64,000 bases of DNA from a virus. Numbering within the stretch: position 1 is the first letter of the stretch; every line of letters starts with the position of its first letter. The notes under the pieces were generated by a model, which worked only from the letters and a program-made list of their open reading frames with translations, had not been told where the DNA came from and did not search any database. The translations under genes were made by a program, and so were the position numbers. Of the stretch, positions 4,030-46,954 are shown piece by piece. The DNA lies in the IMG/VR virus record IMGVR_UViG_3300005613_000006, positions 64,001 to 128,000 of that record. One strand, given 5' to 3'.

Positions 4030-4837
4030 GGCATTCCTCCCATTGAAGGTCTATTTCTTGGTGACAGCTAGTTACCTCTAGGTCTTTTACTGTCTTGTCT
4101 AAACTAAGCCGGTCACCCCCCAAAAACCTTCGGTTCATTTCCGCCGCCTTGTACTCTTCCTTGTTGCCCACCTTGTTTGGAAATAGGCTTTGTACGCGAT
4201 TGACGGCGGCATTGACGAAAACACTTATCGGGGGACACAACATCAATGGCTCAACGCTGGAAACAAAGGCTTGTAGTTGAGCCTCTAGTTGATTCGGCTG
4301 TGTGAACTGCGCCTTTTCCAACAAGCACAGGATTTCATCGCGGCGGAATATGTGGGCGTCTACCGATAACGGATAATTGTAGTTCGTGTATGGGTCGCAT
4401 GTATTCCTGTTCCAAAGTAGGAACGGCCCTGCGTCTTGAAAGTTGGGCTGGCGAATACTGCGGTGTGACTGGTATTGCCATGCGGTGTTACGCCCTAATC
4501 TCAACGACAAACATGATGCTTTTGGATGTGCAACCATTGCTTTTTTGACATGTTCATGGTTGAATCCTGGCTTGCGCCACATGATTTGGTCGTCTACAAG
4601 AAAACAAAACAATGGACCACAGTTTCGCACAGCTTCCATTACATCGAATTTCAGCTTGGTTTCTTCTTGAAAGTGGGCTCCATCCAGATGCGTGTAGGCT
4701 TGGGCGTAGTCGGCATCGGACGCGCGATACAAAATCAGCGGCTCATTGAATATCCCCTCGCCATTGATATGCAATGACTGCAATAGGAGGTCCAGTTGTG
4801 CCGCACGGTCTTTCGAGAAAACGATTGCGTCTATCAT
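4022..4837 (-). CDS. GT-A-fold glycosyltransferase-like protein
   Basis: IVFSKDRAAQLDLLLQSL start, FLVDD (DxD-like). Confidence 0.6.
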   Translation of the reverse strand: MIDAIVFSKDRAAQLDLLLQSLHINGEGIFNEPLILYRASDADYAQAYTHLDGAHFQEETKLKFDVMEAVRNCGPLFCFLVDDQIMWRKPGFNHEHVKKAMVAHPKASCLSLRLGRNTAWQYQSHRSIRQPNFQDAGPFLLWNRNTCDPYTNYNYPLSVDAHIFRRDEILCLLEKAQFTQPNQLEAQLQAFVSSVEPLMLCPPISVFVNAAVNRVQSLFPNKVGNKEEYKAAEMNRRFLGGDRLSLDKTVKDLEVTSCHQEIDLQWEECHV

Positions 4838-5574
4838 TTGAACACGGTCTCCAAAATGTGCTTAACGAGAATGGTGTATGTTGCCTTTTCCATTGCTGGA
4901 TAGTGGGCGTCAACCCACTCTTGACATTCTTCGGGCTCCTGTAGACAGTGAGACACCATACCATACAAGTCTTCCAAGTCTCCCTCTTCTACCCGAGGTA
5001 TCTCCAATTCTTCCGCCACTTCCTTTCGGTCGGTCAGACAGAACGCTTTGCAGTTAATGGCCCTCATCCCCTCTACTATATTTGTCACAAAGGCTATCTT
5101 GGTTGATGAATATGCCTGACAGTGTTCCTCAGTTTGAACGAAGCCCACGTATTGTGGAATAGGCCATGTCCACGGCCCGAAAATCTTCAAGTTGAACTTA
5201 CCCACGGGCCACGCGAGAGACATTACCATAGGATTGGGAGACCCAATGTAGACAACATCTGATTCCATGTGTGGGTTAGGGTCTACATGGTGGAATGTAA
5301 TGTCATCTACCACGTTGGGCAACTCCATTTCTTCTCCATCGAGTATCCATATATTCTGGTCCACCTGGACCATTGTGTGCATATCTGGACGCGCCTCAAT
5401 ACACTTCTCCATCGCACGGTCGGCCTTGGTGGTTAGGATGAATACATCGGGGTTGATTTCATCAAATATGTCGAAGGCTGGTGTATTCTGCCACAAGAAA
5501 GTCTCATGCCCCAGCTTCTCGAACGCCACTGCTAATCCCATTATGTCGGGATGGTGTTTACACAGTATCTTCAT
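4834..5574 (-). CDS. GT-B-like protein (CgeB/glycosyltransferase-like)
   Basis: Probable start MKILCK at 5574; DVVYIG, YSSTKI motifs. Confidence 0.5.
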   Translation of the reverse strand: MKILCKHHPDIMGLAVAFEKLGHETFLWQNTPAFDIFDEINPDVFILTTKADRAMEKCIEARPDMHTMVQVDQNIWILDGEEMELPNVVDDITFHHVDPNPHMESDVVYIGSPNPMVMSLAWPVGKFNLKIFGPWTWPIPQYVGFVQTEEHCQAYSSTKIAFVTNIVEGMRAINCKAFCLTDRKEVAEELEIPRVEEGDLEDLYGMVSHCLQEPEECQEWVDAHYPAMEKATYTILVKHILETVFK

Positions 5575-5956
5575 CCTCATCCTCCCAGAGTTCAAAATTC
5601 CACGACCCATCTGGCGCGACCACCTTGCATGATTGAACGATGGTAGTAGTGCGAGTGCCTCCGTCGTCCAGTTTTTGGAATTCCATGTGCATACCCTTGC
5701 CAATGTGTCCAATTTTCAAACAAGAACCGCCCCATGTACAACCATTGAATCGTCTTTCGACTTCTTCCAAGTAGGTAGTTCCATTGCGAACTCGCACAAT
5801 GCCATTTGTTGGGTCTACGAAGGTAATTTCGTACACGTTGTTAAGTGTTTCGGCGTATAGCTTTGTGCCTTCCTCGAACTTGCACGTGTCAACGCAACCC
5901 TTTTCAGCTTTGGAATTTAGCTGTGCTTGTAGTTTCTTGTCAATATGGTCGCTCAT
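5558..5956 (-). CDS. hypothetical protein
   Basis: ORF tiling between neighbours. Confidence 0.7.
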   Translation of the reverse strand: MSDHIDKKLQAQLNSKAEKGCVDTCKFEEGTKLYAETLNNVYEITFVDPTNGIVRVRNGTTYLEEVERRFNGCTWGGSCLKIGHIGKGMHMEFQKLDDGGTRTTTIVQSCKVVAPDGSWNFELWEDEDEDTV

Positions 5957-8244: not shown

Positions 8245-8720
8245 GGTCTTTTAGCCTCCACGATGAAATGGTATCCTGTGACACGCTTTTTGATGATAGT
8301 CAATCCCATTGTCGCAAGAAAATTTGATAGACCCAAAGCTGTCAGCGTTATCTTCTTGACAAACTGTGGATTATCGGCGGCGTGTCCGTGCAAATGCGCG
8401 TTGGCTTGATGCACGTCAATCGCATAGGTTGTGAAACCCTTGCAGACCTCATACAAGTCGGTGCCTCCGATAATAAGTGTGCCACCGTGGCGCAGTTTGG
8501 CAACCCAGTGTGACAGTACATCCATCACAATATCTGCTGGCAGATAATCAATCACGTCGTTGGCAACGATTTCTGTGGCCTCGGCGTCGTCCACCCACGC
8601 ACTAAGTTTGAATGTTGGGTCACCAATCTTGAGTTCGTCCGTTTCCTCGGTAGCAAATGGACTGACATTTAGGTAACCGCTTCGCGGTTCCTCTTCTGTG
8701 TACAACAGGTTTATTCTCAT
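8241..8720 (-). CDS. class I SAM methyltransferase-like protein
   Basis: MRINL start; EIVANDVIDYL...KLRHGGTLII. Confidence 0.6.
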   Translation of the reverse strand: MRINLLYTEEEPRSGYLNVSPFATEETDELKIGDPTFKLSAWVDDAEATEIVANDVIDYLPADIVMDVLSHWVAKLRHGGTLIIGGTDLYEVCKGFTTYAIDVHQANAHLHGHAADNPQFVKKITLTALGLSNFLATMGLTIIKKRVTGYHFIVEAKRP

Positions 8721-9727
8721 AGCGTCACCGCCTTCCTGAATATCTCGTCCCACTTATGTGTGAATCTTTCTAGCGAGAACTTCTCTTCTACAGTTCTACG
8801 TCCTGCCTCCCCAATCTCACGCGCCATAGTTGGGTTGTCCAACAGGGTTTGTGTGTACGCGCGCAACTCTTGAAGGTCGTTCGACACGAATCCATTGACT
8901 CCATGCTCAATCACAATCTCAGGAATGAGACACGTCGCCGTGGACACTACCGGAGTACCACACGCCATCGCTTCCAGAATAACAGTAGGAAGGGAGGACA
9001 CGGTTGTTGTGTTGAGGTAGACCGAGGCGGTGTTGTAGGCTTCAATCAGGGCCTCGACCGACTCAGCCGGTTCGGACAATCCTGGTGTACCGCCCAAAAC
9101 CTTGACTGGAATTATCGAGCCCTTGCCGGTAACTTGCTCCCAGATACGGTAGCCACAGCACCAATCCCTATTTATCCAGTCGTTACACACCGACAAAACT
9201 ACCTTTTCACGCTCCATATCCAGCGGTCGGAACATTTCCAGGTCAAGACCAGTGTGGTTCACTTCGCCGTGGTCGTCTGGGAAGCCCCAGGCTTGGCGAC
9301 CGTACTCGCTCACGAACACGTCAATGTCGCCACTCATTTCCCTGGCTTGCGCCTTCTGGACCTCAGTGTATTCCGGCATGGGCAGTGTATGTTCCATACT
9401 GATAAGTGGCACCTTCAATAGGTTGGATAACGCCTGCCCATACTGGAATTGTCCTACTTTGTTTTGTGATAGTATCACGTCAATGTCAACCCAGTGTGGA
9501 ATCTGGTCGTCGCCCATGCGCGAATCAAGCAGCATGTAGTTGGGTGGCACCGGAGCGTAGTCTTTGTTCCAGTCCTTAATCCCTTCTGCTCTCCACGCAT
9601 AGAAGTTGTGACCACACTGACACATCATGGTTTCGTAGCGCTCATGCGTCGGAAACGTCAGGATGTTCAAGGGTTCATCTTCGCCGCGCGTGGCGTAGCG
9701 AAGGAGTGTGTGTATTTGACTTGGCAT
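8717..9727 (-). CDS. GT4 family glycosyltransferase
   Basis: LEAMACGTPVVST, IEHGVNGFV. Confidence 0.9.
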   Translation of the reverse strand: MPSQIHTLLRYATRGEDEPLNILTFPTHERYETMMCQCGHNFYAWRAEGIKDWNKDYAPVPPNYMLLDSRMGDDQIPHWVDIDVILSQNKVGQFQYGQALSNLLKVPLISMEHTLPMPEYTEVQKAQAREMSGDIDVFVSEYGRQAWGFPDDHGEVNHTGLDLEMFRPLDMEREKVVLSVCNDWINRDWCCGYRIWEQVTGKGSIIPVKVLGGTPGLSEPAESVEALIEAYNTASVYLNTTTVSSLPTVILEAMACGTPVVSTATCLIPEIVIEHGVNGFVSNDLQELRAYTQTLLDNPTMAREIGEAGRRTVEEKFSLERFTHKWDEIFRKAVTL

Positions 9728-10063
9728 TCAATCTTCCTTCCTGTGAATCTGCAACATACGACCATCTTGCAAAGCAATTTCTCCTGGTCTCTTTCCATGC
9801 CCACAACAACTTCCCCTCATATCAATGCCTGCGGCTTGTAGCGCGGCTACTATTGGGGCAACACATGCGTCGATTTGTGCAAATTTCCATTTTTCTTTTC
9901 CGGTACAACTTAGGTCGGCGGGAATCTTGACGTATACACCAACGGGCTGTTTTCCACATCGCTTACACGGGCGAACACCGGCTGTTTCACCTGTGTCTAC
10001 CCAGACCCATTGTGAACCATTCCACACAATTTCATGTCCGTGTGATTCGCTAGTTGCTGTCAT
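9728..10063 (-). CDS. hypothetical Cys-rich protein
   Basis: CKRC; IDACVAPIVAALQAAGI...SCCGH. Confidence 0.7.
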   Translation of the reverse strand: MTATSESHGHEIVWNGSQWVWVDTGETAGVRPCKRCGKQPVGVYVKIPADLSCTGKEKWKFAQIDACVAPIVAALQAAGIDMRGSCCGHGKRPGEIALQDGRMLQIHRKED

Positions 10064-10542
10064 TGAAAATCTGCTTTTAATATCCTCTTGGCCGCTTCTC
10101 TATCCATCATTGCAAGGCTCAAATCTACGTTATGTTCTTCCCAGCCGTAAAAGCCAGCACGTCGCGGTTCGCCTATCCCAAATACTTTTTGAACAGCGGC
10201 TTCACTGACAATACCGTGGTCTCTAGCCAGTAGGATTTCCCTTCGAGTCTGCTCATCCATTTGGTCACACCCCCAGAGGCGCATCTCTTCCATTGCCTCG
10301 GGGCTAACGAACAAGTCGTTTAACTTTGAGGTATCTGGTTGGGGCAGCTTGGCAGTACGCTCAAGAATCTCTCGTAGCTCTTGCTTAGATAGAGTCCGAC
10401 AATCACATAGGAGACCTGGGCCAGGATTGGGGTTCCACCCATCATCAGTCACAACCACCTTCGGTGTTTCTTCGGCCTTGACCAGCGCTGCCGGTGCAAG
10501 CAGGGCAGCCACACAGGCTTTGAGAAAGTTACGTCTTTGCAT
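10060..10542 (-). CDS. Tat-signal protein with putative capsid-derived segments
   Basis: MQRRNFLK + hydrophobic core + VKA cleavage site; KLNDLFVSPEAMEE...AGFYGW. Confidence 0.65.
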   Translation of the reverse strand: MQRRNFLKACVAALLAPAALVKAEETPKVVVTDDGWNPNPGPGLLCDCRTLSKQELREILERTAKLPQPDTSKLNDLFVSPEAMEEMRLWGCDQMDEQTRREILLARDHGIVSEAAVQKVFGIGEPRRAGFYGWEEHNVDLSLAMMDREAAKRILKADFQ

Positions 10543-11134
10543 GGTCTTTGTCCTTCAAAAAGTCTAACGGAAACTCAGGACAAGCCATAGGCGGAAGCCG
10601 TTGAATGTCAAACCCTTTTGTGTCCTCAACAAACTGCATGTAGTCTGCTACATATCTATCAGCGGCTTTCTGGTCCACAATCTCAATCTCCGAAGTAACC
10701 TCTACCGGAAAGTCTACCATTCGGTGGTACGGCGCGCGGCGTCCAAGTTCCCAAAGTTCTTCCCTCTCCATCTGTTCGACTGTCTTCCACTGATGGTGAG
10801 CAAGCATGTCTGAAAATTCACCATCGGGCACTATACATTTGTCAATGTCCTCCTCTTTGAAGACGGCGTTAGGGCGATAGTCTTGATATACGCGCTCACA
10901 CTCTTCCAAAAACGCTTTCAGTCCCTCGTTGGCATGGTTTGTTGCCTCGATATTCTTCTCGAAACTCTTTCTCAGCAGACTCATAGCCCGCTCAACACCC
11001 TCCCACCGTGGTTCTTTGACGTTATCCAGCACAAAATCAACTGGTGGTTCAGGCTTTGCAGTCACGGTCTTGACCAACGCTAGCGGAGCCAGCAGGGCAG
11101 CCGCCGCAGCCTTTAGGAAACCTCTTCGTTCCAT
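10529..11134 (-). CDS. Tat-signal protein with putative capsid-derived segments
   Basis: MERRGFLK + AAAAALLAPLAL; RWEGVERAMSLLRKSF, PEFPLDFL. Confidence 0.65.
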   Translation of the reverse strand: MERRGFLKAAAAALLAPLALVKTVTAKPEPPVDFVLDNVKEPRWEGVERAMSLLRKSFEKNIEATNHANEGLKAFLEECERVYQDYRPNAVFKEEDIDKCIVPDGEFSDMLAHHQWKTVEQMEREELWELGRRAPYHRMVDFPVEVTSEIEIVDQKAADRYVADYMQFVEDTKGFDIQRLPPMACPEFPLDFLKDKDHAKT

Positions 11135-12378
11135 TTGTCTATTCCTTCGATGCTGTGTTGTTGAGTTACGTCTACCAGTCTCCCCTTGCCAGACCAGTAT
11201 TGATAATATGGTCCTTTACTCCCCAGTTCTCCCTCAAGGGCTTCCTTCATTTGCTCGCCCACCGCTTGATAGGAGAAGTCATAAGCGCGGTCAATACCAA
11301 TGTCAGCCCTTTGTTTTCTTTTATCCTCCTGCTCGAACGCTTCACGCATGGCTCTCTGCAATCCGCGAATGCTGATGCTTTCCCAATTCTCGTTTCCTTG
11401 GAAAAGGTCGGGCATGATGTTGTCGGCGGTCATACCGAAACAGGGCTCTGTGTGTGTGGGAACCAACCACCCGCCCAAACCGCCACCCTTTTCTCCAGCG
11501 GGTCGGTAGATGAATTCGCTCATGCCTCCAACTTGAGAACAGATTGGAGTCTTTCCCATTGCCATAGCGTCAAACGCTGGGATACACCAGCTTTCACCAT
11601 AGGACGGCATCACGAAGCAGTCACACGTATTGTGTAGCATCATCATCTTCTGTTCGTCAAACCGTTGCGTGATGATGATTTCGCCAAGGAAATCATCCTC
11701 GTTGGGATACAGCTTCAACTCTCGTTTGATTTGGACACAGATTTCCTGCACATGTTTGTCGCACTCGCCAGCGGGCATACCGCTTAGATTAGCCTTAATC
11801 ACTAGCGTAACAGGCTCCGACTTACGGAATTCTAAATGATAGGCTTTCAGCAGAGCGGCCAAGTTCTTGCGCCTCGTCACTTCGCCAATCGTGTAGAACA
11901 CAAACTTGCCGCGAAGTTGTGGTATCTTGATTTTCTCGTAGTGACGAGCATACTTGCTTGGGTCACATGGAACTGGCATCACACGCATTGGTCTTTGAAC
12001 ATAACTGTTGGTCGAAGCGCGTAGCATTTGTTCATTGCATACCCATGCTTCATCCATCAAGTTCAATCGCTCGGCCCAGAAGGCGTTGCGGAAGTGGCTG
12101 GTTTCACTATGGAACAACCCGATATTCTTATCAAAGTGTCCACAGTAATCCATCATGTGTGGCAGTATATGTTGAATCACAACATCACAGCCTTCATCAC
12201 TCTGGGCTTCCAGTTCTACGATACGCTCTGGCACTTCAACCTCGGCGTCGTTCAACTTGATTGGTCGAGGCACAACCTCAACGCCTGCGGCATCCAGTGC
12301 GAGGATGTAGTTTTCAGCCGCGTGACTCCATCCGGTGCCATCTCGATAAACACCCAAAAATAAAACTTTATTTGACAT
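11113..12378 (-). CDS. GT4 family glycosyltransferase
   Basis: RKNLAALLKAY, FVMPSYGESWCIPAFDAMAMGK. Confidence 0.9.
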   Translation of the reverse strand: MSNKVLFLGVYRDGTGWSHAAENYILALDAAGVEVVPRPIKLNDAEVEVPERIVELEAQSDEGCDVVIQHILPHMMDYCGHFDKNIGLFHSETSHFRNAFWAERLNLMDEAWVCNEQMLRASTNSYVQRPMRVMPVPCDPSKYARHYEKIKIPQLRGKFVFYTIGEVTRRKNLAALLKAYHLEFRKSEPVTLVIKANLSGMPAGECDKHVQEICVQIKRELKLYPNEDDFLGEIIITQRFDEQKMMMLHNTCDCFVMPSYGESWCIPAFDAMAMGKTPICSQVGGMSEFIYRPAGEKGGGLGGWLVPTHTEPCFGMTADNIMPDLFQGNENWESISIRGLQRAMREAFEQEDKRKQRADIGIDRAYDFSYQAVGEQMKEALEGELGSKGPYYQYWSGKGRLVDVTQQHSIEGIDKWNEEVS

Positions 12379-12919
12379 GTTGAGTTACCTTCTTGCACAA
12401 TGCGACGAATTCATCATGTGTTAGATTCCATTTCATCGTCTGGATTGATTTGTATATCCAATGGATGTTATTTTTAGTGTAGCCTTTAGAAGAGTCGATG
12501 CGGTCTAATGACGCCAAGTTGTCTTTTTTGTTATCTCTTTTTGTTACACCCTTGGGTAGCGTTAAGCATAAGCCAGTATATGGACAAACGCCACCTTGTT
12601 TTATCCACTGTTTCCATAAGTCTTTTGGCATCACTTTGACAGCAATATCTCGCTTATTGGCATTTCGTTGGACACGATTAAAGTATGCGCCATATATCCC
12701 TTCGTGTCCAGAAAATCCAGATGCGTTTTTACCGCGAGATAGACAACCACAGCTTCGTGTTTTGTTGCCAGTTAAGTGATACTTCTTAACTTCTGTAGTA
12801 TTGCCACATTCACATTGACATAACCACCATTCGTGTCGCTTGCGTGTTTTTGCTATTTTGATTGCTGTTAATAGACCAAACTTCTGACCAGCAATGTCTT
12901 TCCAATTCTTGTGTCTCAT
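12368..12919 (-). CDS. free-standing HNH-like homing endonuclease (SLDRID type)
   Basis: GQKFGLLT...CQCECG...SCGC; SLDRIDSSKGYTKNNIHW; AT-rich. Confidence 0.8.
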   Translation of the reverse strand: MRHKNWKDIAGQKFGLLTAIKIAKTRKRHEWWLCQCECGNTTEVKKYHLTGNKTRSCGCLSRGKNASGFSGHEGIYGAYFNRVQRNANKRDIAVKVMPKDLWKQWIKQGGVCPYTGLCLTLPKGVTKRDNKKDNLASLDRIDSSKGYTKNNIHWIYKSIQTMKWNLTHDEFVALCKKVTQHVK

Positions 12920-21909: not shown

Positions 21910-22611
21910 CTATTTATCCTTGGAATTATATACTACGACAGCCCGGCATAATTCTAACAATCTATCTAGTGATAGGTCCATTTTCATTTTGTTTACATCT
22001 TTATGAACCCACCACACATTGTCTTTTGTGTAGCCCCCGCAACTGTCAATCCGGTCTAGTGAGGCACTATTGTATAACACTATTGACAAGCCTGAAATAG
22101 CACACGCACCTTCTTGTTTCAACCATAATTCCCATAAAAACTTAGCGTCTAAATCAAACGTAAATTTCTTTTTTCTTGCACGACATCGTATATCTGCCAC
22201 CAAAGAGCCGTTAATGTCACAATATCCAGTCCAGCGGTGATTCTTTTTTCGTTTACGATAACACCCACAGCTTTTAGCACGCCCACTTTTCAAACGAGAG
22301 GTTGGCACTGTTGAAGTATTATCACATTGACATCGACATAACCAATTGATGCTTCCGTTGGCTGTTTTACCTACGGGTTTTATTGTGGTAAGTAAACCAA
22401 ATTGCATTCCTGGTTCTATTTGCCCTCGTAAATCTTGCTTGGGAATACCATGATGTTCAAGGTAGTCATATACCAACCGTACACTACAACCAACTTCGTC
22501 GGCAATGATATATGGAGATTTTTTGAGTTGAGTATATTGCTTCGACAGAAATTCTTTTGTTAATATGTCTTGATATACTGGGCTGAAACGGCCATTTTCT
22601 AATCGTGACAT
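21910..22611 (-). CDS. free-standing HNH-like homing endonuclease (SLDRID type)
   Basis: GMQFGLLT...CRCQC; SLDRIDSCGGYTKDNVWWVHK. Confidence 0.8.
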   Translation of the reverse strand: MSRLENGRFSPVYQDILTKEFLSKQYTQLKKSPYIIADEVGCSVRLVYDYLEHHGIPKQDLRGQIEPGMQFGLLTTIKPVGKTANGSINWLCRCQCDNTSTVPTSRLKSGRAKSCGCYRKRKKNHRWTGYCDINGSLVADIRCRARKKKFTFDLDAKFLWELWLKQEGACAISGLSIVLYNSASLDRIDSCGGYTKDNVWWVHKDVNKMKMDLSLDRLLELCRAVVVYNSKDK

Positions 22612-23134: not shown

Positions 23135-23460
23135 ACTATCAACTCCAATTTCTGCAAGAGACCTTCCACTTCTTTCCTATTCCCTTTTTGATGAGCCTGC
23201 ACCAACGCCATACACAGATAGCGCAGCTTCCACAAGTCGTTGACAATCATGTGCATTGCGTTGCCAGAGATAACGTGGTCAGGTCCCTTAATCTCTTGAT
23301 TGATAGCCACAAGAGTGTCCAAATCCATAATGCGACGATTGAACGTCAGCTTCGGAGTGGCTGGTCCTGGTTCTGGTTTTGGCTTGTCGCTTGGTGGCGG
23401 CGTTGGCGCTTTAGCACCCATTAGAATGCTCCCATTATTATCGTATCTGGTCTGGTACAA
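23131..23460 (-). CDS. hypothetical protein
   Basis: ORF tiling; Pro-rich linker. Confidence 0.6.
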   Translation of the reverse strand: MYQTRYDNNGSILMGAKAPTPPPSDKPKPEPGPATPKLTFNRRIMDLDTLVAINQEIKGPDHVISGNAMHMIVNDLWKLRYLCMALVQAHQKGNRKEVEGLLQKLELIV

Positions 23461-23936
23461 ACCACACCAAGAGACATGTTTCCATAGTTGTGTACTTCCA
23501 ACTGTTTGTTCTCTGGTATCAACGTAAGAAAGGAACTGACCTTAGTGCAATCGAGATAAACAGCCAAATGCTTCTTCCCAACCGGGAGTGAACCGGCTAA
23601 CTCATTAACGAAGAAGTTGTACAACTCTTGGTCTGGGTCGAGGTCCATCATATCGTGCACAGTCACATGGGAACTCATCGCCGTTACGTAGCGATAAAGT
23701 TCATCACTACCAAAAGCATCATCCCAAGCATCAGTTCCGATAGCAACGTCGGTGATTCTATGCGTCCCATTTCTTCTCGCTACAGTCTTGCACAACGCAG
23801 ATAGGCGTGGGGTAAATTGTCCACACTTTGCCTCGTCGTCATACACCATTATGTTGCGATGCGTTCCAGATGCCAGTATGGTGTGCCACTGGTCACAGAA
23901 AATCTTGCGAACAAAGGATTTGTTGAAGAGTTCCAA
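23421..23936 (-). CDS. putative diverged fragment/paralogue of a major capsid protein
   Basis: TTG start after GAGGT; SFVRKI...WHTILA...RNIMVYD...GQFTPRL; shares segments with 10060 and 10529 ORFs. Confidence 0.5.
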   Translation of the reverse strand: MELFNKSFVRKIFCDQWHTILASGTHRNIMVYDDEAKCGQFTPRLSALCKTVARRNGTHRITDVAIGTDAWDDAFGSDELYRYVTAMSSHVTVHDMMDLDPDQELYNFFVNELAGSLPVGKKHLAVYLDCTKVSSFLTLIPENKQLEVHNYGNMSLGVVCTRPDTIIMGAF

Positions 23937-26707: not shown

Positions 26708-27820
26708 CTACTTTATACTCCTCACAAAATCGTGTAATGGCCCTACGTCCATTGCTCCTGTGTCTTTAGCTGGTAGCTCAGGAATGAATAGCTCGTATTG
26801 CCGATGTAGTTTTTCTTGCCAATCTTTCTTGGCTTTTTGGCCCGCTTCGTCGTTATCCGCGAGTATGATAATAGAAAGGTACGACCCGAGGCGGCGTAGC
26901 GCCACCAGTTGTTCCTCTGTTAATTCCGTTCCAAAAACCGCCAACGCATAATGGATTCCAGCCATTTCTAACTTCCACACGTCGCCCGGCCCCTCCACTA
27001 GAATGATGGTGCCTTCTTGGAAAATATGCTGCTTGGCAAACCAAGTATTGTAGAGATAGTGACTGCGATTGAAGCCATCGTTGTTCTTCCACTTTCCAGC
27101 GTTGATGATTCCTGCAATGTCAGTGGGACACGGTTCATCCGGCATGTGATACAAGTTGCACTTGGGGCACTTGTCAAACATGGTGCGGGCGGTGAAGCCG
27201 ATGATTTTGGTGTACAAATCATCATAGATGGGCACGACGATTCTTTTACTCTTGTAATGAAATCCCACATCGTACTTATCCAAAACCTCTTTCGAGTACC
27301 CTCTGTTCACATAGTATGGGGCTGGTATGTCCAGGCCCTCTCGTATTTTTACCCTGTCCCATTCGGTGTCAACCGGCGTCGGTGCCAGTCTCAGCTTATT
27401 CATCAAGGTCGTTTGTTTGCGTCGTTCGACTTCCGCATCTTCTGGGCGAGGAACATCCAACAGGCTATCATATCCCAGAAATGTCGCCACCCAGTCAATC
27501 GCTTCGGTCCACGGTATCTCTTGGCCACGCTGCCTCGACAACACGCCCCACACGAACCCGAATAGCGTTTTCTTCCACTTCTTCTCACAGTGGTGTGTCC
27601 TACATTTCCAGTGCCCACGCACTTCATCCCCATCTGGATACAAGTTCCAAGCCGTGGGGTTGTCTCCTCCATGTACAGGACACGGCCCACACACGAAACG
27701 ACGAGACTTGCTGTACTCTACACCTAACTCAAACAACAACTCTTCGATGTTGTCACAAGCTATGTTAGCGAGTTCATTCAGCCTCGGGTAATCCCTGTAC
27801 TTCTCCAGGGGGAGTTTCAT
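26708..27820 (-). CDS. dnaG: DNA primase (DnaG-like)
   Basis: CPVH...C zinc finger, GFTAR, LVEGPGD, DNDEAG TOPRIM. Confidence 0.88.
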   Translation of the reverse strand: MKLPLEKYRDYPRLNELANIACDNIEELLFELGVEYSKSRRFVCGPCPVHGGDNPTAWNLYPDGDEVRGHWKCRTHHCEKKWKKTLFGFVWGVLSRQRGQEIPWTEAIDWVATFLGYDSLLDVPRPEDAEVERRKQTTLMNKLRLAPTPVDTEWDRVKIREGLDIPAPYYVNRGYSKEVLDKYDVGFHYKSKRIVVPIYDDLYTKIIGFTARTMFDKCPKCNLYHMPDEPCPTDIAGIINAGKWKNNDGFNRSHYLYNTWFAKQHIFQEGTIILVEGPGDVWKLEMAGIHYALAVFGTELTEEQLVALRRLGSYLSIIILADNDEAGQKAKKDWQEKLHRQYELFIPELPAKDTGAMDVGPLHDFVRSIK

Positions 27821-29300
27821 TGTCATCATCCTTTGGTGGTTCAAACGGAACGTCTTGGGAGTCGTCTACTGCTCTCTGTTGAGCTAATCGTTTCAAGTTG
27901 CTGCGTGTGTCTCCCTCGTATACCTTCCCGAATTTCCCCTCAAAGAAAATGTTGATGTAGTCCCCACGTTGCATTCCTCCTCCATGTCGGGCTTTAACCA
28001 CAACCATCTTGCGATTGCCGTGGTGTAATCCCATGTCGGCAATCTCTTCATCGCTCTTGCATTTGAAAATGGCACAGTTGGTTACCAACCACAAGAGTCG
28101 GTCGCTGCCAGCAATCACTCCAGAATGTTCACCGTCGATACCATCACGGTTCAGTTGTGTGAATGCTCCAATGGAAATGTCGTGACGTACCGCAAAGTTG
28201 TGCAACGCGGTAATCATAAATCCAAGTTGTTGGTATTCGGCAAGGTTACCGTGTAGCTTCATGCCATCCATCAGTTTCAGATAATCATAGATGATAACGC
28301 ACGGTAGGCGGTTACCGTCTTCGTCAAAACCCACGTTCTTCTTAATCCACCGTCGCATAACGGCAATCGAGTCCTCAAAGCTGCGGCCAGATATATTCAG
28401 GTAGTGATATGGAATGTTTTCCAAGTCCTCCTGTGCTTCTCTGACCTTCTGTCTCTTTGAATCGCTGAAAGAATACTTGCCGGTCTCCACTTCATTGATG
28501 GTAACACGACCACCACTCCCGTAGACCAGATTGGGAATAAGGCGCGCCCAATGGTCTTCATCGGCCATTTCCGTATCCAGTTGTAGGACTGGAATACCCA
28601 GTTTCTTCGCAATGTGCAAAGCGATGTTGTCAGCCACCATCGTTTTGCCCACTCCCATTCGAGCCCCTATAAGGGATACTGTCTTACGTCGCCAACCCCC
28701 ACCAATAGCTGCATCGTACAATGGAAAGCCGGTACTGATGCCAACCATTTCGACCGGATGCGCTTCTATGTGGTCGAGAAAGTCATTCAGACCGTCGCTA
28801 ATTGGGTGTGGGTCTCGACTATCCACGTCCTGCAACAACAGCGTGAAGTCCAGCACGGCGTTCTCCGCAATCCCGATAATCTCTTCGATAGGTTCGCGGC
28901 CACTTATTTCCTCAAGGCTAATGCCAGCCTGTCGAAGTTGTTCGTGCATCAGGCGAGCAACGTGCAACTTGCGAATCTGCCCAGCCCACACCCTTACATT
29001 CTCCACATTGATTACGTTCTCGGCAAACAGGCCACGCAAGTGACGCTGTTCCTCTGGTTTCTCGAATAGGCTTGTGTATCCCAGATGCTCCGCTGCCGAT
29101 ATGACAGACGCAGCATCTATCGTTGACAAGTTCTTCTCTTCGTATAGGTATTTGAAACAGTTGTACAACGCCTGATTGGTTGTATCTGTAAACGTGTCTG
29201 CCTGTAGGAAATCAGCCACGTCTAAATAAGCATCTTCACCACAGTGGAAAAGACCGCTGAGTACAGCGAATTCCGACTTCAAATCCGTCAACCTATTCAT
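27774..29300 (-). CDS. dnaB: replicative DNA helicase (DnaB-like)
   Basis: GARMGVGKT, IIYDYLKL, TQLNR, VKARHG. Confidence 0.92.
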   Translation of the reverse strand: MNRLTDLKSEFAVLSGLFHCGEDAYLDVADFLQADTFTDTTNQALYNCFKYLYEEKNLSTIDAASVISAAEHLGYTSLFEKPEEQRHLRGLFAENVINVENVRVWAGQIRKLHVARLMHEQLRQAGISLEEISGREPIEEIIGIAENAVLDFTLLLQDVDSRDPHPISDGLNDFLDHIEAHPVEMVGISTGFPLYDAAIGGGWRRKTVSLIGARMGVGKTMVADNIALHIAKKLGIPVLQLDTEMADEDHWARLIPNLVYGSGGRVTINEVETGKYSFSDSKRQKVREAQEDLENIPYHYLNISGRSFEDSIAVMRRWIKKNVGFDEDGNRLPCVIIYDYLKLMDGMKLHGNLAEYQQLGFMITALHNFAVRHDISIGAFTQLNRDGIDGEHSGVIAGSDRLLWLVTNCAIFKCKSDEEIADMGLHHGNRKMVVVKARHGGGMQRGDYINIFFEGKFGKVYEGDTRSNLKRLAQQRAVDDSQDVPFEPPKDDDNETPPGEVQGLPEAE

Positions 29301-29303
29301 CCA

Positions 29304-30062
29304 CTAATCCCTTCCAGCTTTGCCACCCTTCGCGCAACAATCGTTACACTTATACCTGTTGTACTCAGGATTGCGGTTGTATCCTGTTGCCAATGAGGCG
29401 GCGATTTTCTCTTTCTTTCCACACCCTTTACAGGTTACACTAACTTTCTTGCTGGTGTCGGGCGCTTCGCTATCGCTGCTACGGCCCGTTGCCACCTGGA
29501 CGCCTAGTGGTTTACCCTTCTCGTCGTGAGTATGTTTTGTCACGTCTTGACGAGAGAACGCACGGCGGTCGTCCTTAAATTTGTTCTTCCGCTTCCCTTG
29601 CTTGGGCTTGCGGAACGGCTCTCGTTTGCACTTCTCTCCTAGTTCTTCATTGCTTCCCTTGAGTGCATCGTTGGTGCCATCGCCCTTGGTCCTAACAACA
29701 CAATCCGCAAACTCTTCGGGAATCTCTTCTTCCTCTACTTCGTTCCCTGGTTCCAAGTCCTCTTCATCATATTCAATGTCGTGTATCAGTTGAATACCGT
29801 GTGCCGCATTAGACCCTTCTTCCTCTTCCTCTTCTTCTTCCGGCTGTCGCAACTCGGGCGGTAGCTGCATTCCTGGCAATCCATCGGCGGCAACAGGCGT
29901 CGGCTGGATTGGTAACTCAATGTCTATATCCATGTCGGCCAACAACTGCGCCTCTGTCTTCGGTGGCGACAGTGGCTTTCCTGTAATCGCCGTATACACC
30001 TTGCAGACTGCCTCCCAGTCCTGCTGTTCTACAGCTATCTTTAACACATCTGGTAGTTTCAT
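29304..30062 (-). CDS. hypothetical protein, acidic tract and C-terminal Zn ribbon
   Basis: Poly-E; CKGC...CNDC. Confidence 0.7.
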   Translation of the reverse strand: MKLPDVLKIAVEQQDWEAVCKVYTAITGKPLSPPKTEAQLLADMDIDIELPIQPTPVAADGLPGMQLPPELRQPEEEEEEEEGSNAAHGIQLIHDIEYDEEDLEPGNEVEEEEIPEEFADCVVRTKGDGTNDALKGSNEELGEKCKREPFRKPKQGKRKNKFKDDRRAFSRQDVTKHTHDEKGKPLGVQVATGRSSDSEAPDTSKKVSVTCKGCGKKEKIAASLATGYNRNPEYNRYKCNDCCAKGGKAGRD

Positions 30063-30568
30063 GTTCTCGCTCCCTTCGCTCTCTGCAACGCTATGAATGA
30101 TTCGGACAACGAACGTAGCTGCTGTGGGACAAACGACAAAAGGTCAAGCCGTAGTCGCGTGTCCATTAGTGCTTGTTGAAACTTCATCGCTACGTCGTCG
30201 CCCTTGATTGCTGCTGCTCTCTTGTGTTCTTTGGACATAAACTGACTGTACTGTTCTACGGTGCTTGCAACACAAAAGTCAATGGATTCCTTGCACCAGT
30301 TGAGCCGGGCGGTCAGTCTGCCAATTTCTAATTGTATGTGGAGAGCGGATTGGTTGAGGATGGCCGAGGCTTCCCCGCACTCTTCTTGGTTTAGCTTACG
30401 TATTTGGGCAGGCGTCATGTTAATGAAGCGCTCTACCTCGTTCTGAACCGAAGGGTATCCCAACCCAACTTTTCGATGGTACTCGGTGAAAATTTCATCA
30501 AGCTCCTTCAACCTCTGTTCCACCTTCGACCGATTCTTCTCCCTCGATTCGTCGCTGCCACTCATCAT
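30059..30568 (-). CDS. helical protein, possible recombination mediator
   Basis: All-alpha pattern; between RecA and helicase. Confidence 0.55.
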   Translation of the reverse strand: MMSGSDESREKNRSKVEQRLKELDEIFTEYHRKVGLGYPSVQNEVERFINMTPAQIRKLNQEECGEASAILNQSALHIQLEIGRLTARLNWCKESIDFCVASTVEQYSQFMSKEHKRAAAIKGDDVAMKFQQALMDTRLRLDLLSFVPQQLRSLSESFIALQRAKGART

Positions 30569-30935
30569 CGTCCTCCGTATATGGAAGGTGTACTATCTCT
30601 ATGTTGTTGGCCTCGCACCACGCCACTTTGCGGCGGTCATTGGCCTGGGCTCGCTTGAATTCAGCTATGGTGTGATGGAAGTGGGCAACAAACTCAGTGT
30701 GTTGTCTTCCCTGTACTTCAATCACCAATTCTCTCAGCGGTAGATAGAAGTCTATCGTCAGGTTCTCACTTGGCAGCGGAACCTCTTCCAAGATTCGCTG
30801 TGTCGGATACAGGCTTCGCAGCAACTCGCGGCATCGCAAGTGCAACTCTGAACGAGGCCGCTTGTCGTTGAAGTCCACCTGATGGCCAGATGGTGGCCAG
30901 TTGTGGGTGTAGCCGTTCTTATCAGTTACTTTCAC
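30498..30935 (-). CDS. small PD-(D/E)XK (DUF559-like) endonuclease
   Basis: IDFYLPLRELVIEVQGRQH. Confidence 0.75.
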   Translation of the reverse strand: MKVTDKNGYTHNWPPSGHQVDFNDKRPRSELHLRCRELLRSLYPTQRILEEVPLPSENLTIDFYLPLRELVIEVQGRQHTEFVAHFHHTIAEFKRAQANDRRKVAWCEANNIEIVHLPYTEDDDEWQRRIEGEESVEGGTEVEGA

Positions 30936-31321
30936 TGTATCACCTTCACAAAGACTTTCAACCCTTCTTTCTTGGCAAAGTTAATCATGGCCTTGGTGCC
31001 TTTCGACTTCCCGTCCCAAACTGCTACGAGTGCGTCAGCGTGTTTCTCCATCTTCCAGTTGCGTTGCATACCGGCCTTGGCATTGTAGGCACCATAACTG
31101 TTGTACTTGACTAGAGCGCCGGGAACACTAATGTCTTCCCAATCGGCAGGAAACTCTGCAACCGAAACTCCAATCTCTGCGGCATAATCTTCACCCAGAC
31201 TATCCACCCCCCTGGCTTTGCCAGACACAACCTCGGTGAACTCAAACTGTGACTCCACACACGCGGCCTTGACCACTTCGTAGTCCGTAATCCCACGGCT
31301 ACCAGCGATAATCACTTTCAT
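30932..31321 (-). CDS. SLOG/YspA-like (DUF2493) protein
   Basis: MKVIIAGSR, VSGKARGVD, AGMQRN, WDGKSKGT. Confidence 0.85.
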   Translation of the reverse strand: MKVIIAGSRGITDYEVVKAACVESQFEFTEVVSGKARGVDSLGEDYAAEIGVSVAEFPADWEDISVPGALVKYNSYGAYNAKAGMQRNWKMEKHADALVAVWDGKSKGTKAMINFAKKEGLKVFVKVIQ

Positions 31322-31323
31322 GG

Positions 31324-33420
31324 CTACGCCCCCATCATCTGATGCAAAGCATCTTCTAAGTGTTTGAACTCTTCGGGATTCTCACGAAGCCGGTTGGTCA
31401 GGTTCTCTTTGCCCTGTACCTGATAGGGCCTCAGACTATCCTTGTCCTCAAAATCTAGGTCCAAAACGTCTGCCATGAAGTTCAACCTGAACCATGCGCC
31501 ACGTTGTTCGATGAATCCAAAGTCAATTCCAATGTCCACAATCTCCTGCAATTCGTCAATACCAATTCCATACCGGATAATCGACGTGGTTTTCTGCCCA
31601 GGAGCAGCGTTCAAAGCCGTGGACGTGGTAATCCAGTCTACCGTTTGTCCGATAACCGGCCCTTCTTCTCCACCCTCATGGATGAACTTGAAACTCTTGC
31701 ATTCAAGCCCAACATCACAAGCATACTGAATCTTGCGGCCACCGCTGGCAATCTTCCACTTGCCCATGCCGCTGACGTTGGAAATGAAATGTTGGATTCC
31801 CACAAGGATTATGTCATTGATTGGAATAACATTGCTCAAACGCTTGCAGAACTTGGCCATGAGGATTGCTCCACTTGCCCGGTCCATTTCTCCTAATTCC
31901 AATTCCATTTCCTTGTCGGTTGCCAACTGCGAAATCGAATCAATGACAATCACAGCACCAGGGACATTGTGTATGGTATGTTCTGCCGCCGTAAGGAACT
32001 CTCTAGCAGTAAGGATGCGAGTCTTGCCATTCTCGTCCTTGTAGGACCGCACGATGTTTAGTTTATCCAGGTCGAGACCCTTAATACCCCTCAAGTCCCG
32101 CGTCTTTATTCTTCCTTCTACATTCAAAAAGTAGGTAGGTCTGCCTACTGCTTGTGCCTTTGCCAATATGTGTAGGGAGGTAACCGTGTTGTGTGTAATT
32201 ACATGATTATCAGTTATGTATAGATGGTCTGGATGGTCAACTTGAATACATACTGCCTTTTTTTTGCCCAGATATGTAACCTTTACTATTTTGCGAGTAA
32301 TATCACTTTTTTTTCTGCGTTTGCATCGTTTTAATTTTTCAGGATGACGAAATAAAACACTAGTATCATTGATTCTAATGTGGCATCTATAAGACTGAAA
32401 TTGTTTTCCGTTACAAGTAGTGTGACGAAGCACAATCTTACATAATCCTCCTATAGATTGTATAAGCTGCTTGAAATCATTGGCCAAGTTTTCTGATGCA
32501 GTTGTTAGAGAACAGTGACCTCTCTTACTTATTGTGCCATCTGTATCCATCAATCCCTGTATAAGTGCCACTCTTACATTATATGAATTGTATAGATACG
32601 ATTTTGGAATAAACTTCTTATGAGAATTACAGCCCAACAATGCTAATCCGTCTAACTTATCTGCATAAATGTTGCGTTGTCCATTACAACGTAAATCATA
32701 ATCTTTTACTGAATTAGCCTGTAGTTTGAGGAAGAATCCTGGCTCCAATTCAGCTTCAAAGTTTTTCAGCACTGCGTTATTGGTATTGGTAAAAGTGATG
32801 TTTCTTCTGGTTATTCCGCCATCACCCAATAGTAGTCCTAACAAATATGGAGATATTGGAATGTGTTGCGAGTGATAACATGTATAATCTGGTAACGGTA
32901 CTTGCCACTTGGGTCTATCGCTGTAAAACAAATCATCCATGAAATCTGACAGTTGCAGGACTTCATATTCATGTCGTTGTTGTGCCTTAACCTTCCACAA
33001 GTGTTCGTTACATGACCGCACCACATCGCCATTATCAAACTCAATTTCATATATTGGTTTGACTCCCTGTGGAAAAATCCTTGTCACTTGCGCGCTGCTA
33101 CTATCTGGTGTGCATACTACATCACCGGCTTTAATATCCCCAATGCGTTTAGGCCCATTGGGTGTATGGATAATAGAATCTATGTCTTGGCATTTACCAC
33201 ACTTGGGGTCTCCCGCAATCGTTACTACGCTGCCGCCTGGAATACCTCCCCCAAGCACCAAGTCTAGTTTAGGGCTAACGTGTACGAGGTCGTGCTGTGC
33301 ATCTTCCAGTTGTGCCCCGGTGATAAACGCCCCTGCTCCCAACTTCTTGATTAAGTCCTGACTAGTTTGTGGTCTCTTTGGTTTCTCTTTGCTCTCTTGT
33401 TTCTTCTTGGCCATGTTCAA
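31324..33420 (-). CDS. recA: RecA/UvsX recombinase containing an intein
   Basis: LDLVLGGGIPGG, P-loop GDPKCGK|T, VIDSI, SGGRKI, RGAWF. Confidence 0.9.
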   Translation of the reverse strand: MNMAKKKQESKEKPKRPQTSQDLIKKLGAGAFITGAQLEDAQHDLVHVSPKLDLVLGGGIPGGSVVTIAGDPKCGKCQDIDSIIHTPNGPKRIGDIKAGDVVCTPDSSSAQVTRIFPQGVKPIYEIEFDNGDVVRSCNEHLWKVKAQQRHEYEVLQLSDFMDDLFYSDRPKWQVPLPDYTCYHSQHIPISPYLLGLLLGDGGITRRNITFTNTNNAVLKNFEAELEPGFFLKLQANSVKDYDLRCNGQRNIYADKLDGLALLGCNSHKKFIPKSYLYNSYNVRVALIQGLMDTDGTISKRGHCSLTTASENLANDFKQLIQSIGGLCKIVLRHTTCNGKQFQSYRCHIRINDTSVLFRHPEKLKRCKRRKKSDITRKIVKVTYLGKKKAVCIQVDHPDHLYITDNHVITHNTVTSLHILAKAQAVGRPTYFLNVEGRIKTRDLRGIKGLDLDKLNIVRSYKDENGKTRILTAREFLTAAEHTIHNVPGAVIVIDSISQLATDKEMELELGEMDRASGAILMAKFCKRLSNVIPINDIILVGIQHFISNVSGMGKWKIASGGRKIQYACDVGLECKSFKFIHEGGEEGPVIGQTVDWITTSTALNAAPGQKTTSIIRYGIGIDELQEIVDIGIDFGFIEQRGAWFRLNFMADVLDLDFEDKDSLRPYQVQGKENLTNRLRENPEEFKHLEDALHQMMGA
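32188..33192 (-). mobile_element. intein with LAGLIDADG endonuclease (335 aa)
   Basis: Starts CQDIDS, ends ITHN before Thr; LLGLLLGDG and IQGLMDTDG; AT-rich. Confidence 0.92.
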
Positions 33421-33877
33421 TCTCTCTCAATTTACCAAATAGTGATTGACCGCGCGGCTTTGAAGGTTTACGCGGTTCTGATGTTGTTGAAACTGTCTCC
33501 ACAGCTTCCGCCAAAGCCTGTTTGTTTAGGGCGTCTATCTCCTTCTTCTTACGTTGTATAACTGGTTCGATGATGAACGTCGCACGGAACGACCGCATAC
33601 GTTTGCAACGCTTGTCCTTGAGTGCCGCGACCACGGCTTCCGCCCCATACTTGTTGATGAGAGCATTGACCGGCTTCGATTGCTGCGAGAAGAATCGAGC
33701 CCACTTCTTGTCGGCCTTCCAAAACTCGGGAGGAAGGGTCTGCTTGTTTTGGTGTGCGATAAGGGCGCAGAGTTGTTCTATGCAGTATTGTGCTGCTGTG
33801 ATATAGCGTGGACTACCATCGTCATTCGTGCCATACTGTGAGGGCCACCTACTTTTTTCAGTTTGATTTTTGCCCAT
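33362..33877 (-). CDS. hypothetical protein
   Basis: ORF tiling. Confidence 0.7.
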   Translation of the reverse strand: MGKNQTEKSRWPSQYGTNDDGSPRYITAAQYCIEQLCALIAHQNKQTLPPEFWKADKKWARFFSQQSKPVNALINKYGAEAVVAALKDKRCKRMRSFRATFIIEPVIQRKKKEIDALNKQALAEAVETVSTTSEPRKPSKPRGQSLFGKLREIEHGQEETREQRETKETTN

Positions 33878-34004
33878 AGTGTTCTACTACTTTGCAACAC
33901 CAATCTAAGAAATTATCCTGATGTAGGTCTGACTTCATTGCGTTAATGTCTTTATGTACCCATTGTACATTGCCAGAAACATATCCTTGTGTGTTGTCTA
34001 TTCT
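33858..34004 (-). pseudogene. 3' remnant of an SLDRID-type endonuclease
   Basis: Own translation RIDNTQGYVSGNVQWVHKDINAMKSDL...; no start codon. Confidence 0.8.
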
Positions 34005-34260
34005 AGAATGGAAAATAGCTGTGTCCAACCGTAAGATAACTGGTAATTTGTCGGGGATATATCAAGGGCTCGCCCTTGCCGGTCAACAGCATCGTGCTGA
34101 CCCCACCATCCCTAGCAAACCGACAACCAATCTCAAAGTTGCGCCAGTTTATCTCTGGCGAAGCGGGCGCGTTCTGCGCCGTCATTTTGGATACACAAAA
34201 AGGGCAGGCTGCATCACAAGCAGCCGTGCCCACAACAACGCTGAACGTCCCAATTTTCAT
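34003..34260 (-). pseudogene. truncated radical SAM gene
   Basis: CDAACPFC motif, LLTGKGEP; stops after about 85 aa. Confidence 0.8.
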
Positions 34261-34469: not shown

Positions 34470-34768
34470 TAGTCTTCCTCTTCTACAACTGCGATAATCG
34501 CGGTAAACATGACAAGGTGTACGTCCTCGCCATCAATGTGCAACTTCGTTGTTGAGTAGGGCTGGAAGATAACCACGTCGCCTTTCTTGACTGGAATTAC
34601 GTAGTGTTCGGGATGAGGGTGGCCGTGTTTCAGCCCAGGCCCCACTTCCAAAACTCTTCCCTTCTTCAACTTATCCGCCACCTTATCCGGCAGATAGATT
34701 CCACCCTTGCTCTTTACCTCTTTGATGGGCTCGATTACGACCCACTCTCCTATTGGATTCAGTTTTAT
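34469..34768 (-). CDS. groES: co-chaperonin GroES, apparent ATA start
   Basis: In-frame extension IKLNPIGEWVVIEP...SKGGIYLPD, GRVLEVGPG, VKKGDVV. Confidence 0.85.
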   Translation of the reverse strand: MKLNPIGEWVVIEPIKEVKSKGGIYLPDKVADKLKKGRVLEVGPGLKHGHPHPEHYVIPVKKGDVVIFQPYSTTKLHIDGEDVHLVMFTAIIAVVEEED

Positions 34769-35442: not shown

Positions 35443-35638
35443 GCTTTGCCTTCCACTTCTTATCTAGGGCTGCTAGTTTAGCGTCAAGGTCTGCCTTAGC
35501 CCGTTTCTTTTCGTTCCATTGGTGCCCACAAGTTAGACAATAGTAGTCGTTAAGGCGTCGAATGTCACCCCGACGATGGGTGCGCCTTTTATTACAGCGA
35601 GGACACCTGGGATGAAATCTAGGAGTAGGTGGCATCAT
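35423..35638 (-). CDS. small Zn-finger protein
   Basis: CPRC...CLTC. Confidence 0.6.
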   Translation of the reverse strand: MMPPTPRFHPRCPRCNKRRTHRRGDIRRLNDYYCLTCGHQWNEKKRAKADLDAKLAALDKKWKAKHGSRTT

Positions 35639-40690: not shown

Positions 40691-40727
40691 AAAAAACTGG
40701 TCCGTACACTATTATACAGACCAGTTT
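40691..40727 (-). terminator. intrinsic terminator
   Basis: AAACTGGTCTGTATA-ATAG-TGTACGGACCAGTTTTTT after 40737 stop. Confidence 0.7.
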
Positions 40728-40736
40728 GCGTGAAAA

Positions 40737-41423: not shown

Positions 41424-41438
41424 GTAACTGTCCTTTCA

Positions 41439-46952: not shown

Positions 46953-46954
46953 GT

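Follow-up and report, generated by a model that had tools for sequence, protein, structure and literature searches.

Two small genes lying in tandem in the genome of a large uncultured lake phage each encode a twin-arginine (Tat)-type signal fused to short pieces of the phage's own virion proteins: the major capsid protein (MCP) in both cases and, in one of them, a probable tail-tube protein as well. Both genes are real, and both belong to a widespread and unnamed family of small proteins encoded by phages; the pieces, or beads, that the family carries are old, selected copies of the most conserved morphogenesis motifs of the phage, set in variable order. A sequence-only reading of this DNA had described Tat-type signals joined to shuffled virion-protein pieces, and that structural description is supported and extended here. 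It also suggested three possible functions: decoys against capsid-sensing immunity, poisons of assembly, or scaffolds directed to the envelope. The same reading knew of no described system like these, and our literature searches likewise found no description of such collage genes or of a phage tatA.

The DNA analyzed (the window, 64,000 nucleotides) comprises bases 64001-128000 of a 172,878-bp IMG/VR record that was judged complete. The phage, designated G000, has a GC content of 49% and a proteome that is not acidic. A halophilic host was considered as a trivial cause of Tat use and ruled out (median pI about 7, K 6%). A host search over species genomes returned matches only to lake MAG contigs resembling binned phage DNA.

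Layout of the locus and its twin-arginine signals

The two genes, P0001 and P0002, are flanked by a Cys-rich ORF and by two glycosyltransferase genes, all on the same strand of the window:

8717..9727, minus strand: glycosyltransferase of the GT1 family (PF00534, E 3.5e-14; phrog_2170)
9728..10063, minus strand: 111-aa Cys-rich ORF, with an ATGA overlap with the P0001 stop
10060..10542, minus strand: P0001, 160 aa, Tat-type signal followed by two blocks derived from the MCP and colinear with it
10474..10542, minus strand: P0001 signal, aa 1-23, with RRxFLK, a hydrophobic stretch and VKA
10529..11134, minus strand: P0002, 201 aa, Tat-type signal followed by blocks from the MCP and the tail tube, their order permuted
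11057..11134, minus strand: P0002 signal, aa 1-26 (TIGR01409, 16.0 bits against a cut-off of 16.7; PF10518, E 0.032)
11113..12378, minus strand: glycosyltransferase of the GT1 family (PF00534, E 7.6e-12; phrog_2170, E 1e-21)

The reading frames are closely interlocked. The P0002 stop overlaps the P0001 start by 14 nt, the 3' end of the glycosyltransferase gene at 11113..12378 overlaps the P0002 start by 22 nt, and the glycosyltransferase gene at 8717..9727 is packed just as tightly into this run of genes. Both P0001 and P0002 have an SD-like AAGGA 8-9 nt before their starts. Scanning for promoters and terminators gave sites no more numerous than in shuffled sequence, and searches with the Cys-rich ORF returned no family.

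The arrangement recurs on an independent 1-kb metagenome contig (L010), which carries an orthologue of P0002 (P0004), an orthologue of P0001 (P0007) and then the start of the 111-aa ORF, whose N-terminus is kept at the same position. Within the pairs P0001/P0007 and P0002/P0004 the leader and the blocks alone are conserved, and the linkers differ by indels; between P0002 and P0004, the tube block is the sole long conserved stretch besides the signal.

Tat signals share the consensus S/T-R-R-x-F-L-K near the N-terminus, after which come a hydrophobic stretch, uncharged for about 12-20 residues, then one basic residue and finally a small-x-small site. The leaders of P0001 and P0002 present these elements in turn, with RRxFLK from residue 3, an Ala-rich hydrophobic stretch, a K and a small-x-small site (cleavage sites VKA in P0001 and VTA in P0002, both read by eye). 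The two proteins had been said to begin with near-identical twin-arginine signals and to differ afterwards. Their first 22-23 residues are indeed 74-77% identical, RRxFLK included, and the remainders are unrelated. The sequence-only reading had further made its proposal depend on conservation of RRxFLK, and the motif is kept both in the orthologues and across the family: among 89 members the RR pair is present in 100%, F in 81%, L/I/F in 96% and K in 54%, and the hydrophobic region has a median length of 16 residues. PF10518 scores are 14.6 bits for the P0002 signal and 11.7 bits for that of P0001, against a cut-off of 22.7; the P0001 match is weak (E 0.28) and is accompanied by no TIGR01409 match. 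One family member from a related phage, G001, scores 17.6 bits with TIGR01409, over the cut-off.

Searches of annotated phage records at the DNA and protein levels found no match for P0001 or P0002, and Pfam, PHROGs and NCBIfam returned weak Tat-signal matches only, with no capsid match. AlphaFold folded neither protein with confidence (pLDDT 43 and 46), the look-alikes of both in the ESM Atlas all fell under a useful score, and a predicted complex of the MCP with mature P0001 scored 0.01, a value that weighs neither for nor against an interaction.

Virion-protein blocks in P0001 and P0002

The morphogenesis genes of G000 lie outside the window, all of those below upstream of it:

Genome 26841-30233, plus strand: TerL
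Genome 30234-32558, plus strand: portal
Genome 32594-34183, plus strand: protease/scaffold gene
Between the protease/scaffold gene and the MCP in our gene list, plus strand: probable decoration protein, 154 aa
Genome 34678-35685, plus strand: MCP (P0005), 335 aa
Genome 40706-41824, plus strand: probable tail tube (P0006), 372 aa, with a 3289-aa ORF coming next

P0005 matches the PHROG annotated as 'major head protein' (phrog_2522, E 2e-5) and the solved gp27 capsid protein (PDB 6wkk, E 7e-8), its nearest solved structure. P0006 gave no match in a family search; its language-model likeness to tail-tube clusters (PF18906) and the gene order make it a probable tail-tube protein, an assignment that we offer as a lead.

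When the whole genome was searched with each of the two proteins, blocks were found that share 41-72% identity with the MCP and the probable tail-tube protein of G000 itself, at the following window positions:

10219..10329, minus strand: P0001 aa 72-108, from MCP 200-236 (70% identity, E 1.4e-11)
10132..10164, minus strand: P0001 aa 127-137 (RRAGFYGW motif), from MCP 310-320 (10/11 identical)
10955..11041, minus strand: P0002 aa 32-60, resembling MCP 115-143 (41% identity, E 0.01 over all genome ORFs)
10676..10780, minus strand: P0002 aa 119-153, from about residues 242-276 of P0006, the probable tail-tube source
10556..10597, minus strand: P0002 aa 180-193 (PEFPLDF motif), resembling MCP 62-75 (10/14 identical, E 0.4 alone)

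The resemblance of several blocks to an MCP, which the sequence-only reading had pointed out, is a match to the MCP of G000 itself, and the alignment to that protein which it had proposed does find local similarity, most strongly in P0001 aa 72-108. This similarity (E 1.4e-11 to the phage's own MCP) indicates descent from an MCP gene. The P0001 aa 72-108 block is also the one that is common to the whole family.

What each protein retains is partial. P0001 covers residues 200-236 and 310-335 of the 335-aa MCP, colinear with the parent and separated by a deletion of about 73 MCP residues. The order in P0002 is permuted, because the MCP 62-75 block comes after the 115-143 block. The earlier description of the pieces as out of native order thus holds for P0002 but not for P0001, which is colinear with an internal deletion. 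Nor are the pieces all of capsid origin, as had been supposed: MCP blocks are present, but the strongest block of P0002 (aa 124-153), 70% identical to P0006 247-276 across 30 aa (E 1e-8), derives from the probable tail tube. The MCP 62-75 region recurs in a third Tat ORF of the genome, P0008 (E 2e-4). With about 35 residues of the 372-aa P0006, P0002 has no complete tube fold, and the complete HK97 MCP fold (N-arm, E-loop, P domain with spine helix, A domain) is absent from both proteins, which represent fragments of the MCP. A further candidate, P0002 aa 70-111 as a TerL block, was rejected; it had matched the terminase of an unrelated contig after seed pre-selection and matches neither the phage's own TerL nor the TerLs of five relatives.

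At the nucleotide level, codon positions 1 and 2 of the blocks are 52-80% identical to their sources, and position 3 is 14-47% identical (41% for P0001 aa 72-108 against the MCP, 30% for the P0002 tube block against P0006). With third positions randomised and peptides conserved, the blocks are old copies under purifying selection, not recent ones. The codon-position identities also rule out recent gene conversion, an assembly artefact and a DNA-level function. In a comparison with 63 MCPs, the P0001 block proved closer to that of G000 than to the 62 others, and the other blocks rank near the top.

Collage genes in G000, its relatives and the wider family

An all-against-all comparison found partial blocks of hallmark proteins in just five ORFs of G000: P0001, P0002, P0003, P0008 and P0009. 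Two of these are placed as follows:

Window 23421..23936, minus strand: P0003, truncated MCP paralogue, equivalent to about MCP 134-335, no Tat signal
Genome 134435-134851, outside the window: P0008, third ORF with a Tat-like leader

P0008 carries an MCP 68-95 block (54% identity, E 2e-4) and a probable portal block (10/19 identical, E 0.1), and P0009, of 238 aa and without a leader, carries another P0006 block (E 1e-5). Virion-protein blocks are thus found in 3/3 Tat-like ORFs of the genome, against 2 of some 180-250 other ORFs (p about 1e-5).

Over 170 aa, P0003 shares 36% identity with the C-terminal half of the MCP (E 1e-26); no homologue besides itself was found among 5.8 billion proteins, and no counterpart in five relatives. 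The sequence-only reading had taken this ORF for the MCP and had matched segments of P0001 and P0002 to it. BLASTP of either protein against P0003 gives nothing significant, and the ORF is an orphan truncated paralogue, the true MCP lying outside the window. The proposed pairs do fall in homologous columns, because P0003 is a diverged MCP paralogue; their divergence is too great for them to be taken as matches.

IMG/VR contains 65 relatives of the MCP, with identities of 55-81%, and five large records among these phages (G001-G005) were examined in full. G001, whose MCP is 76% identical, has four Tat-signal ORFs, none orthologous to those of G000. One holds an MCP 256-292 block (E 7e-10) that shares lineage-specific residues with the MCP of G001 itself, another an MCP 76-96 block (E 7e-4), a third a whole decoration-protein-like domain (E 1e-5), and the fourth a weak portal match. 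Neither Tat-collage genes nor partial hallmark copies were found in G002-G005, of which G004 is complete. Collage genes are therefore patchy in presence and show high turnover among relatives. In both G000 and G001 they sit in sugar or glycosyltransferase operons. As a general rule this neighborhood was rejected; the contigs of other members disagree, and some place the gene among replication genes.

The breadth of the family became apparent when a profile of P0001 and P0007 was searched against 1.84 billion cluster representatives. The 137 matches consist of 19 full-length MCPs and 118 short proteins. An RR signal is present in 86 of the short proteins and in none of the full-length MCPs (p 6e-10), and most of the short matches that lack it are fragments of real MCPs. 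Fusions of a Tat signal to capsid fragments, which it had been suggested to look for in relatives, are accordingly present in G001 and in at least 86 clusters. Since that family size, counted at 50% identity, comes from one query, the gap in knowledge is broad and not a single-genome curiosity.

The design common to the family is a Tat signal plus an MCP 204-232 block, to which many members add shuffled tube, tail, portal or TerL motifs. Members with a Tat signal range from 64 to 252 aa (median 108), and the smallest consist of leader, linker and MCP 204-232 block. Two or more separate blocks occur in 29 of 89 members, often in permuted order and drawn from five or six source proteins. Apart from several MCP regions, the sources are the tube (16 members), a 1463-aa tail protein (7) and the portal (3), with the TerL Walker-B region (P0104) and the tape measure in one member each. 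By frequency the MCP is commonest, followed by the tail tube and then the 1463-aa tail protein, and portal and TerL are occasional; these counts are biased towards the MCP, because the query held an MCP block. Column by column, conservation of the MCP block in the Tat proteins equals that in MCPs. Position 226 is the exception: 87% of MCPs have a hydrophobic residue there, and the Tat proteins have Q/T/E/K. Such a change would be expected if that face had ceased to pack against the remainder of the capsid fold.

Might these ORFs be decaying leftovers of duplicated structural genes, open by chance and without function? G000 does contain a truncated orphan copy of the MCP (P0003), together with a tube-block ORF lacking a Tat signal (P0009), as decay of this kind would leave behind. 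Against this stand saturated synonymous sites beneath conserved peptides, orthologues that keep exactly the signal and the blocks, the recurrence of the same design in at least 86 clusters and the exclusive link with the Tat signal, and the relic reading is close to excluded.

The choice of sources raises another possibility, to which we give a slim chance: that the beads co-assemble into head or tail, and that the proteins are then ejected with the DNA and sent by their Tat signals to the periplasm before any gene expression. The beads come from particle-building proteins, and small proteins with no confident fold would suit passage through the tail. However, the genes are surrounded by non-structural genes and are distant from the morphogenesis module, no cargo domain follows the two addresses, and there would be no sense in packing a TerL bead into a particle.

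Export-linked genes, proposed function and known systems

G000 encodes a component of the Tat machinery of its own:

Genome 152045-152266: TatA/B/E protein, 73 aa (PF02416, 45 bits against a cut-off of 21)

An orthologue is carried by G001. PF02416 was not found in G002-G005, nor in the MAG that holds a 141-kb relative contig without a collage gene. In this small sample, TatA and collage genes occur together in two genomes (G000 and G001) and are both missing from five, of which four are incomplete and one (G004) is complete. G000 and G001, but none of G002-G005, also have two Sec-signal trypsin-like proteases and a membrane-anchored thioredoxin, and a further signal-bearing protein is distributed in the same way.

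Relatives of tatA were found on eight other viral contigs, with a small Tat-signal ORF beside or near the gene in five of the eight. Those ORFs contain no blocks from their own phage's proteins, and neither do the Tat ORFs of three further unrelated phages (G006-G008 and G011-G015 in all). Phage-driven Tat export would therefore be wider than the collage design, and the collage itself appears, from these comparisons, to be specific to certain large phages rather than general to phage Tat ORFs.

A canonical Tat signal and a phage TatA indicate the periplasm as the destination, and the proteins may act there, either against incoming related phages (superinfection exclusion) or in envelope remodeling together with the secreted proteases and thioredoxin. 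Tube-like beads, for example, could bind the ejected tape-measure protein or the tail tip. The export-linked proteins that G000 and G001 alone share fit such a role, as does the placement of their collage genes in glycosyltransferase or sugar operons. That said, capsid, portal and terminase are never periplasmic during infection, yet MCP beads are the commonest and one member has a TerL Walker-B bead; the sugar-gene setting, moreover, is not general, other members lying among replication genes. We consider a periplasmic site of action quite unlikely.

A cytoplasmic role at the membrane deserves equally little credence as the virion-borne one. Here the RR leader would remain uncleaved or docked on TatBC, and the beads, displayed on the cytoplasmic face, could serve to nucleate the assembly of heads and tails, to regulate it, or to poison it as dominant negatives against co-infecting relatives. 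The motifs are core or interface elements of self-assembling proteins, and portal and MCP beads occur together in P0008, as do MCP and tube beads in P0002. But the genes are absent from most close relatives, a complete genome included, and so are not needed for assembly; a poison would strike the phage's own proteins, which are the closest match, and the phage TatA speaks for real transport.

The reading that we favor, tentatively and with a good deal of doubt, is that the collage proteins are exported molecular mimics that remove a factor which reads conserved virion motifs. It is preferred because it explains both of the co-selected features, the Tat leader and the choice of the least changeable morphogenesis motifs. 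The patchy presence and high turnover of the genes form an arms-race-like pattern, which we count in its favor.

Tat, unlike Sec, moves folded proteins together with their bound partners, and is the sole such route. Hitchhiker export of bound partners has been published for PaoABC (PMC4273604). By the mechanism proposed, collage proteins would be synthesized in the cytoplasm, probably earlier than the late proteins or at the same time, a timing suggested by the position of the genes among non-structural genes. The host Tat machinery, boosted by the phage TatA, would bring them to the membrane and export them. Each bead would present the same local structure as the conserved motif of the native virion protein and would be bound by a reader of that motif, which may be a host protein that senses capsid, tube, portal or terminase, or else the hijacking protein of a competing element. 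Tat would then remove or sequester the bound reader at or across the inner membrane. In this full form, in which the phage makes collages of its own motifs plus TatA so as to evict readers from the cytoplasm ('eviction by hitchhiking'), the proposal is rather unlikely.

Several points weigh against the mimic reading. The sensors known for capsid, portal or terminase work in the cytoplasm and many are large, and to our knowledge nobody has shown that one of them is exported. In the MCP the blocks form core elements of secondary structure and are not obviously surface epitopes. With pLDDT values of 43 and 46, the local structure of the beads is predicted to be kept by the proposal alone. The Tat HMM scores of P0001 and P0002, finally, are just under the curated cut-offs.

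Comparison with known systems shows where the collage proteins part from each. They resemble established Tat substrates, such as PaoABC and the small and large subunits of hydrogenases, in RRxFLK, a moderately hydrophobic stretch, a basic residue and an AxA-like site. Known Tat substrates, however, are cellular enzymes or cofactor proteins, whereas the collage proteins are phage products of 64-252 aa with no enzyme domain, made up of virion pieces and accompanied by a phage TatA. If the export scheme is true, the phage TatA with its diversified Tat substrates would be the first case known to us of a virus taking over the export of folded proteins.

The vertex protein gp24 of phage T4 is likewise MCP-derived within the same phage lineage. 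Paralogues of that type keep the whole fold and build the shell, whereas the collage proteins keep fragments of 10-40 residues that are permuted and mixed with tube, portal and tail pieces. Superinfection-exclusion proteins (Sp and Imm of T4, Llp of T5, Ltp of TP-J34), which carry Sec or lipoprotein signals, are also small accessory proteins of patchy distribution that are directed to the membrane or periplasm; unlike the collage proteins, they are not known to resemble virion proteins.

Anti-defense mimics, such as the DNA mimic Ocr and the sponge proteins, copy DNA or bind signaling nucleotides and act in the cytoplasm. The collage proteins are like them in being small, fast-evolving accessory proteins, and decoys of this class copy a target so as to occupy its reader; we know of none, however, that copies its own phage's virion motifs or carries an export signal.

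A further parallel is offered by the Gol region of T4 gp23, about 30 conserved MCP residues that are read by the Lit protease of prophage e14. In both cases the unit is a short conserved stretch of MCP, and in Gol it is a host defense that reads it. Gol acts inside the full capsid protein and triggers defense, whereas the collage stretch is a free-standing product with an export signal; the MCP family concerned here also differs from that of gp23, its nearest solved structure being gp27 (6wkk). Should the collage proteins prove to be mimics, they would reveal the short segments of capsid, tube, portal and terminase that are read in the cell, and would thereby provide both a ready-made map of phage 'patterns' and a handle with which to fish out the sensors.

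Phage-encoded TatA and other putative envelope-directed genes

The phage encodes its own TatA, which lies outside the window and has an orthologue in G001, the relative whose Tat-signal ORFs also carry virion-protein blocks.

Genome 152045-152266 (L152:14045-14266), minus strand: TatA (PF02416, 45 bits)

No description of a tatA gene in a phage turned up in our literature searches. Small Tat-signal ORFs accompany phage tatA genes in three unrelated, smaller viral contigs.

L154, 9633-10013: small Tat-signal ORF with phage tatA
L155, 9721-10026: the same arrangement
L160, 9723-10016: the same arrangement

In each of these contigs the small ORF stops at, or barely beyond, the first bases of tatA, which suggests that the pair forms a recurrent two-gene unit.

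Several other genes code for proteins with a leader or a membrane anchor, the first three of them outside the window.

L089:2311-3261, minus strand: trypsin-like protease with a Sec-type leader
L152:10107-12293, minus strand: second such protease
L152:1579-2064, minus strand: membrane-anchored thioredoxin
Window 61686-62489, minus strand: 267-aa ORF with a hydrophobic N-terminal leader

Both proteases and the thioredoxin are shared with G001 and absent from all of G002-G005, the relatives lacking such Tat-signal ORFs; this distribution hints that the two phages share a broader set of genes directed to the periplasm. A family search gave no match for the 267-aa ORF; its G001 orthologue lies directly upstream of the tandem Tat-signal ORFs of that phage and contains, by eye, an HExxH-like motif.

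The tRNA cluster and Cys-rich paralogues

Window 46264-61686, minus strand: cluster of 15 tRNA genes
Window 57360-57772: tmRNA call (ARAGORN), within the cluster
Window 12368-12919, minus strand: Cys-rich ORF
Window 21910-22611, minus strand: Cys-rich ORF

The two Cys-rich ORFs belong to a paralogous family of about five Cys-rich members (36% mutual identity) dispersed across the genome. They look HNH-like by eye, and had no match in Pfam.

Copies and an apparent insertion among morphogenesis genes

L090:1078-1794, minus strand, outside the window: 238-aa ORF without any leader
Genome 26841-30233, plus strand, outside the window: TerL, 1130 aa

A 37-aa block in the 238-aa ORF derives from the probable tube protein (43% identity, E 1e-5), and this ORF may be a non-exported collage of copied virion-protein motifs or a collage precursor. 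In the relative G003 (L127-L131), the probable tube gene itself occurs in two full-length copies far apart, at 4703-5833 (plus) and 78619-80052 (minus). The TerL proteins of the relatives (662-729 aa) align only to residues 4-216 and 626-1130 of the phage protein, so about 410 residues are inserted here; the insert looks like an intein or a homing-endonuclease insertion.
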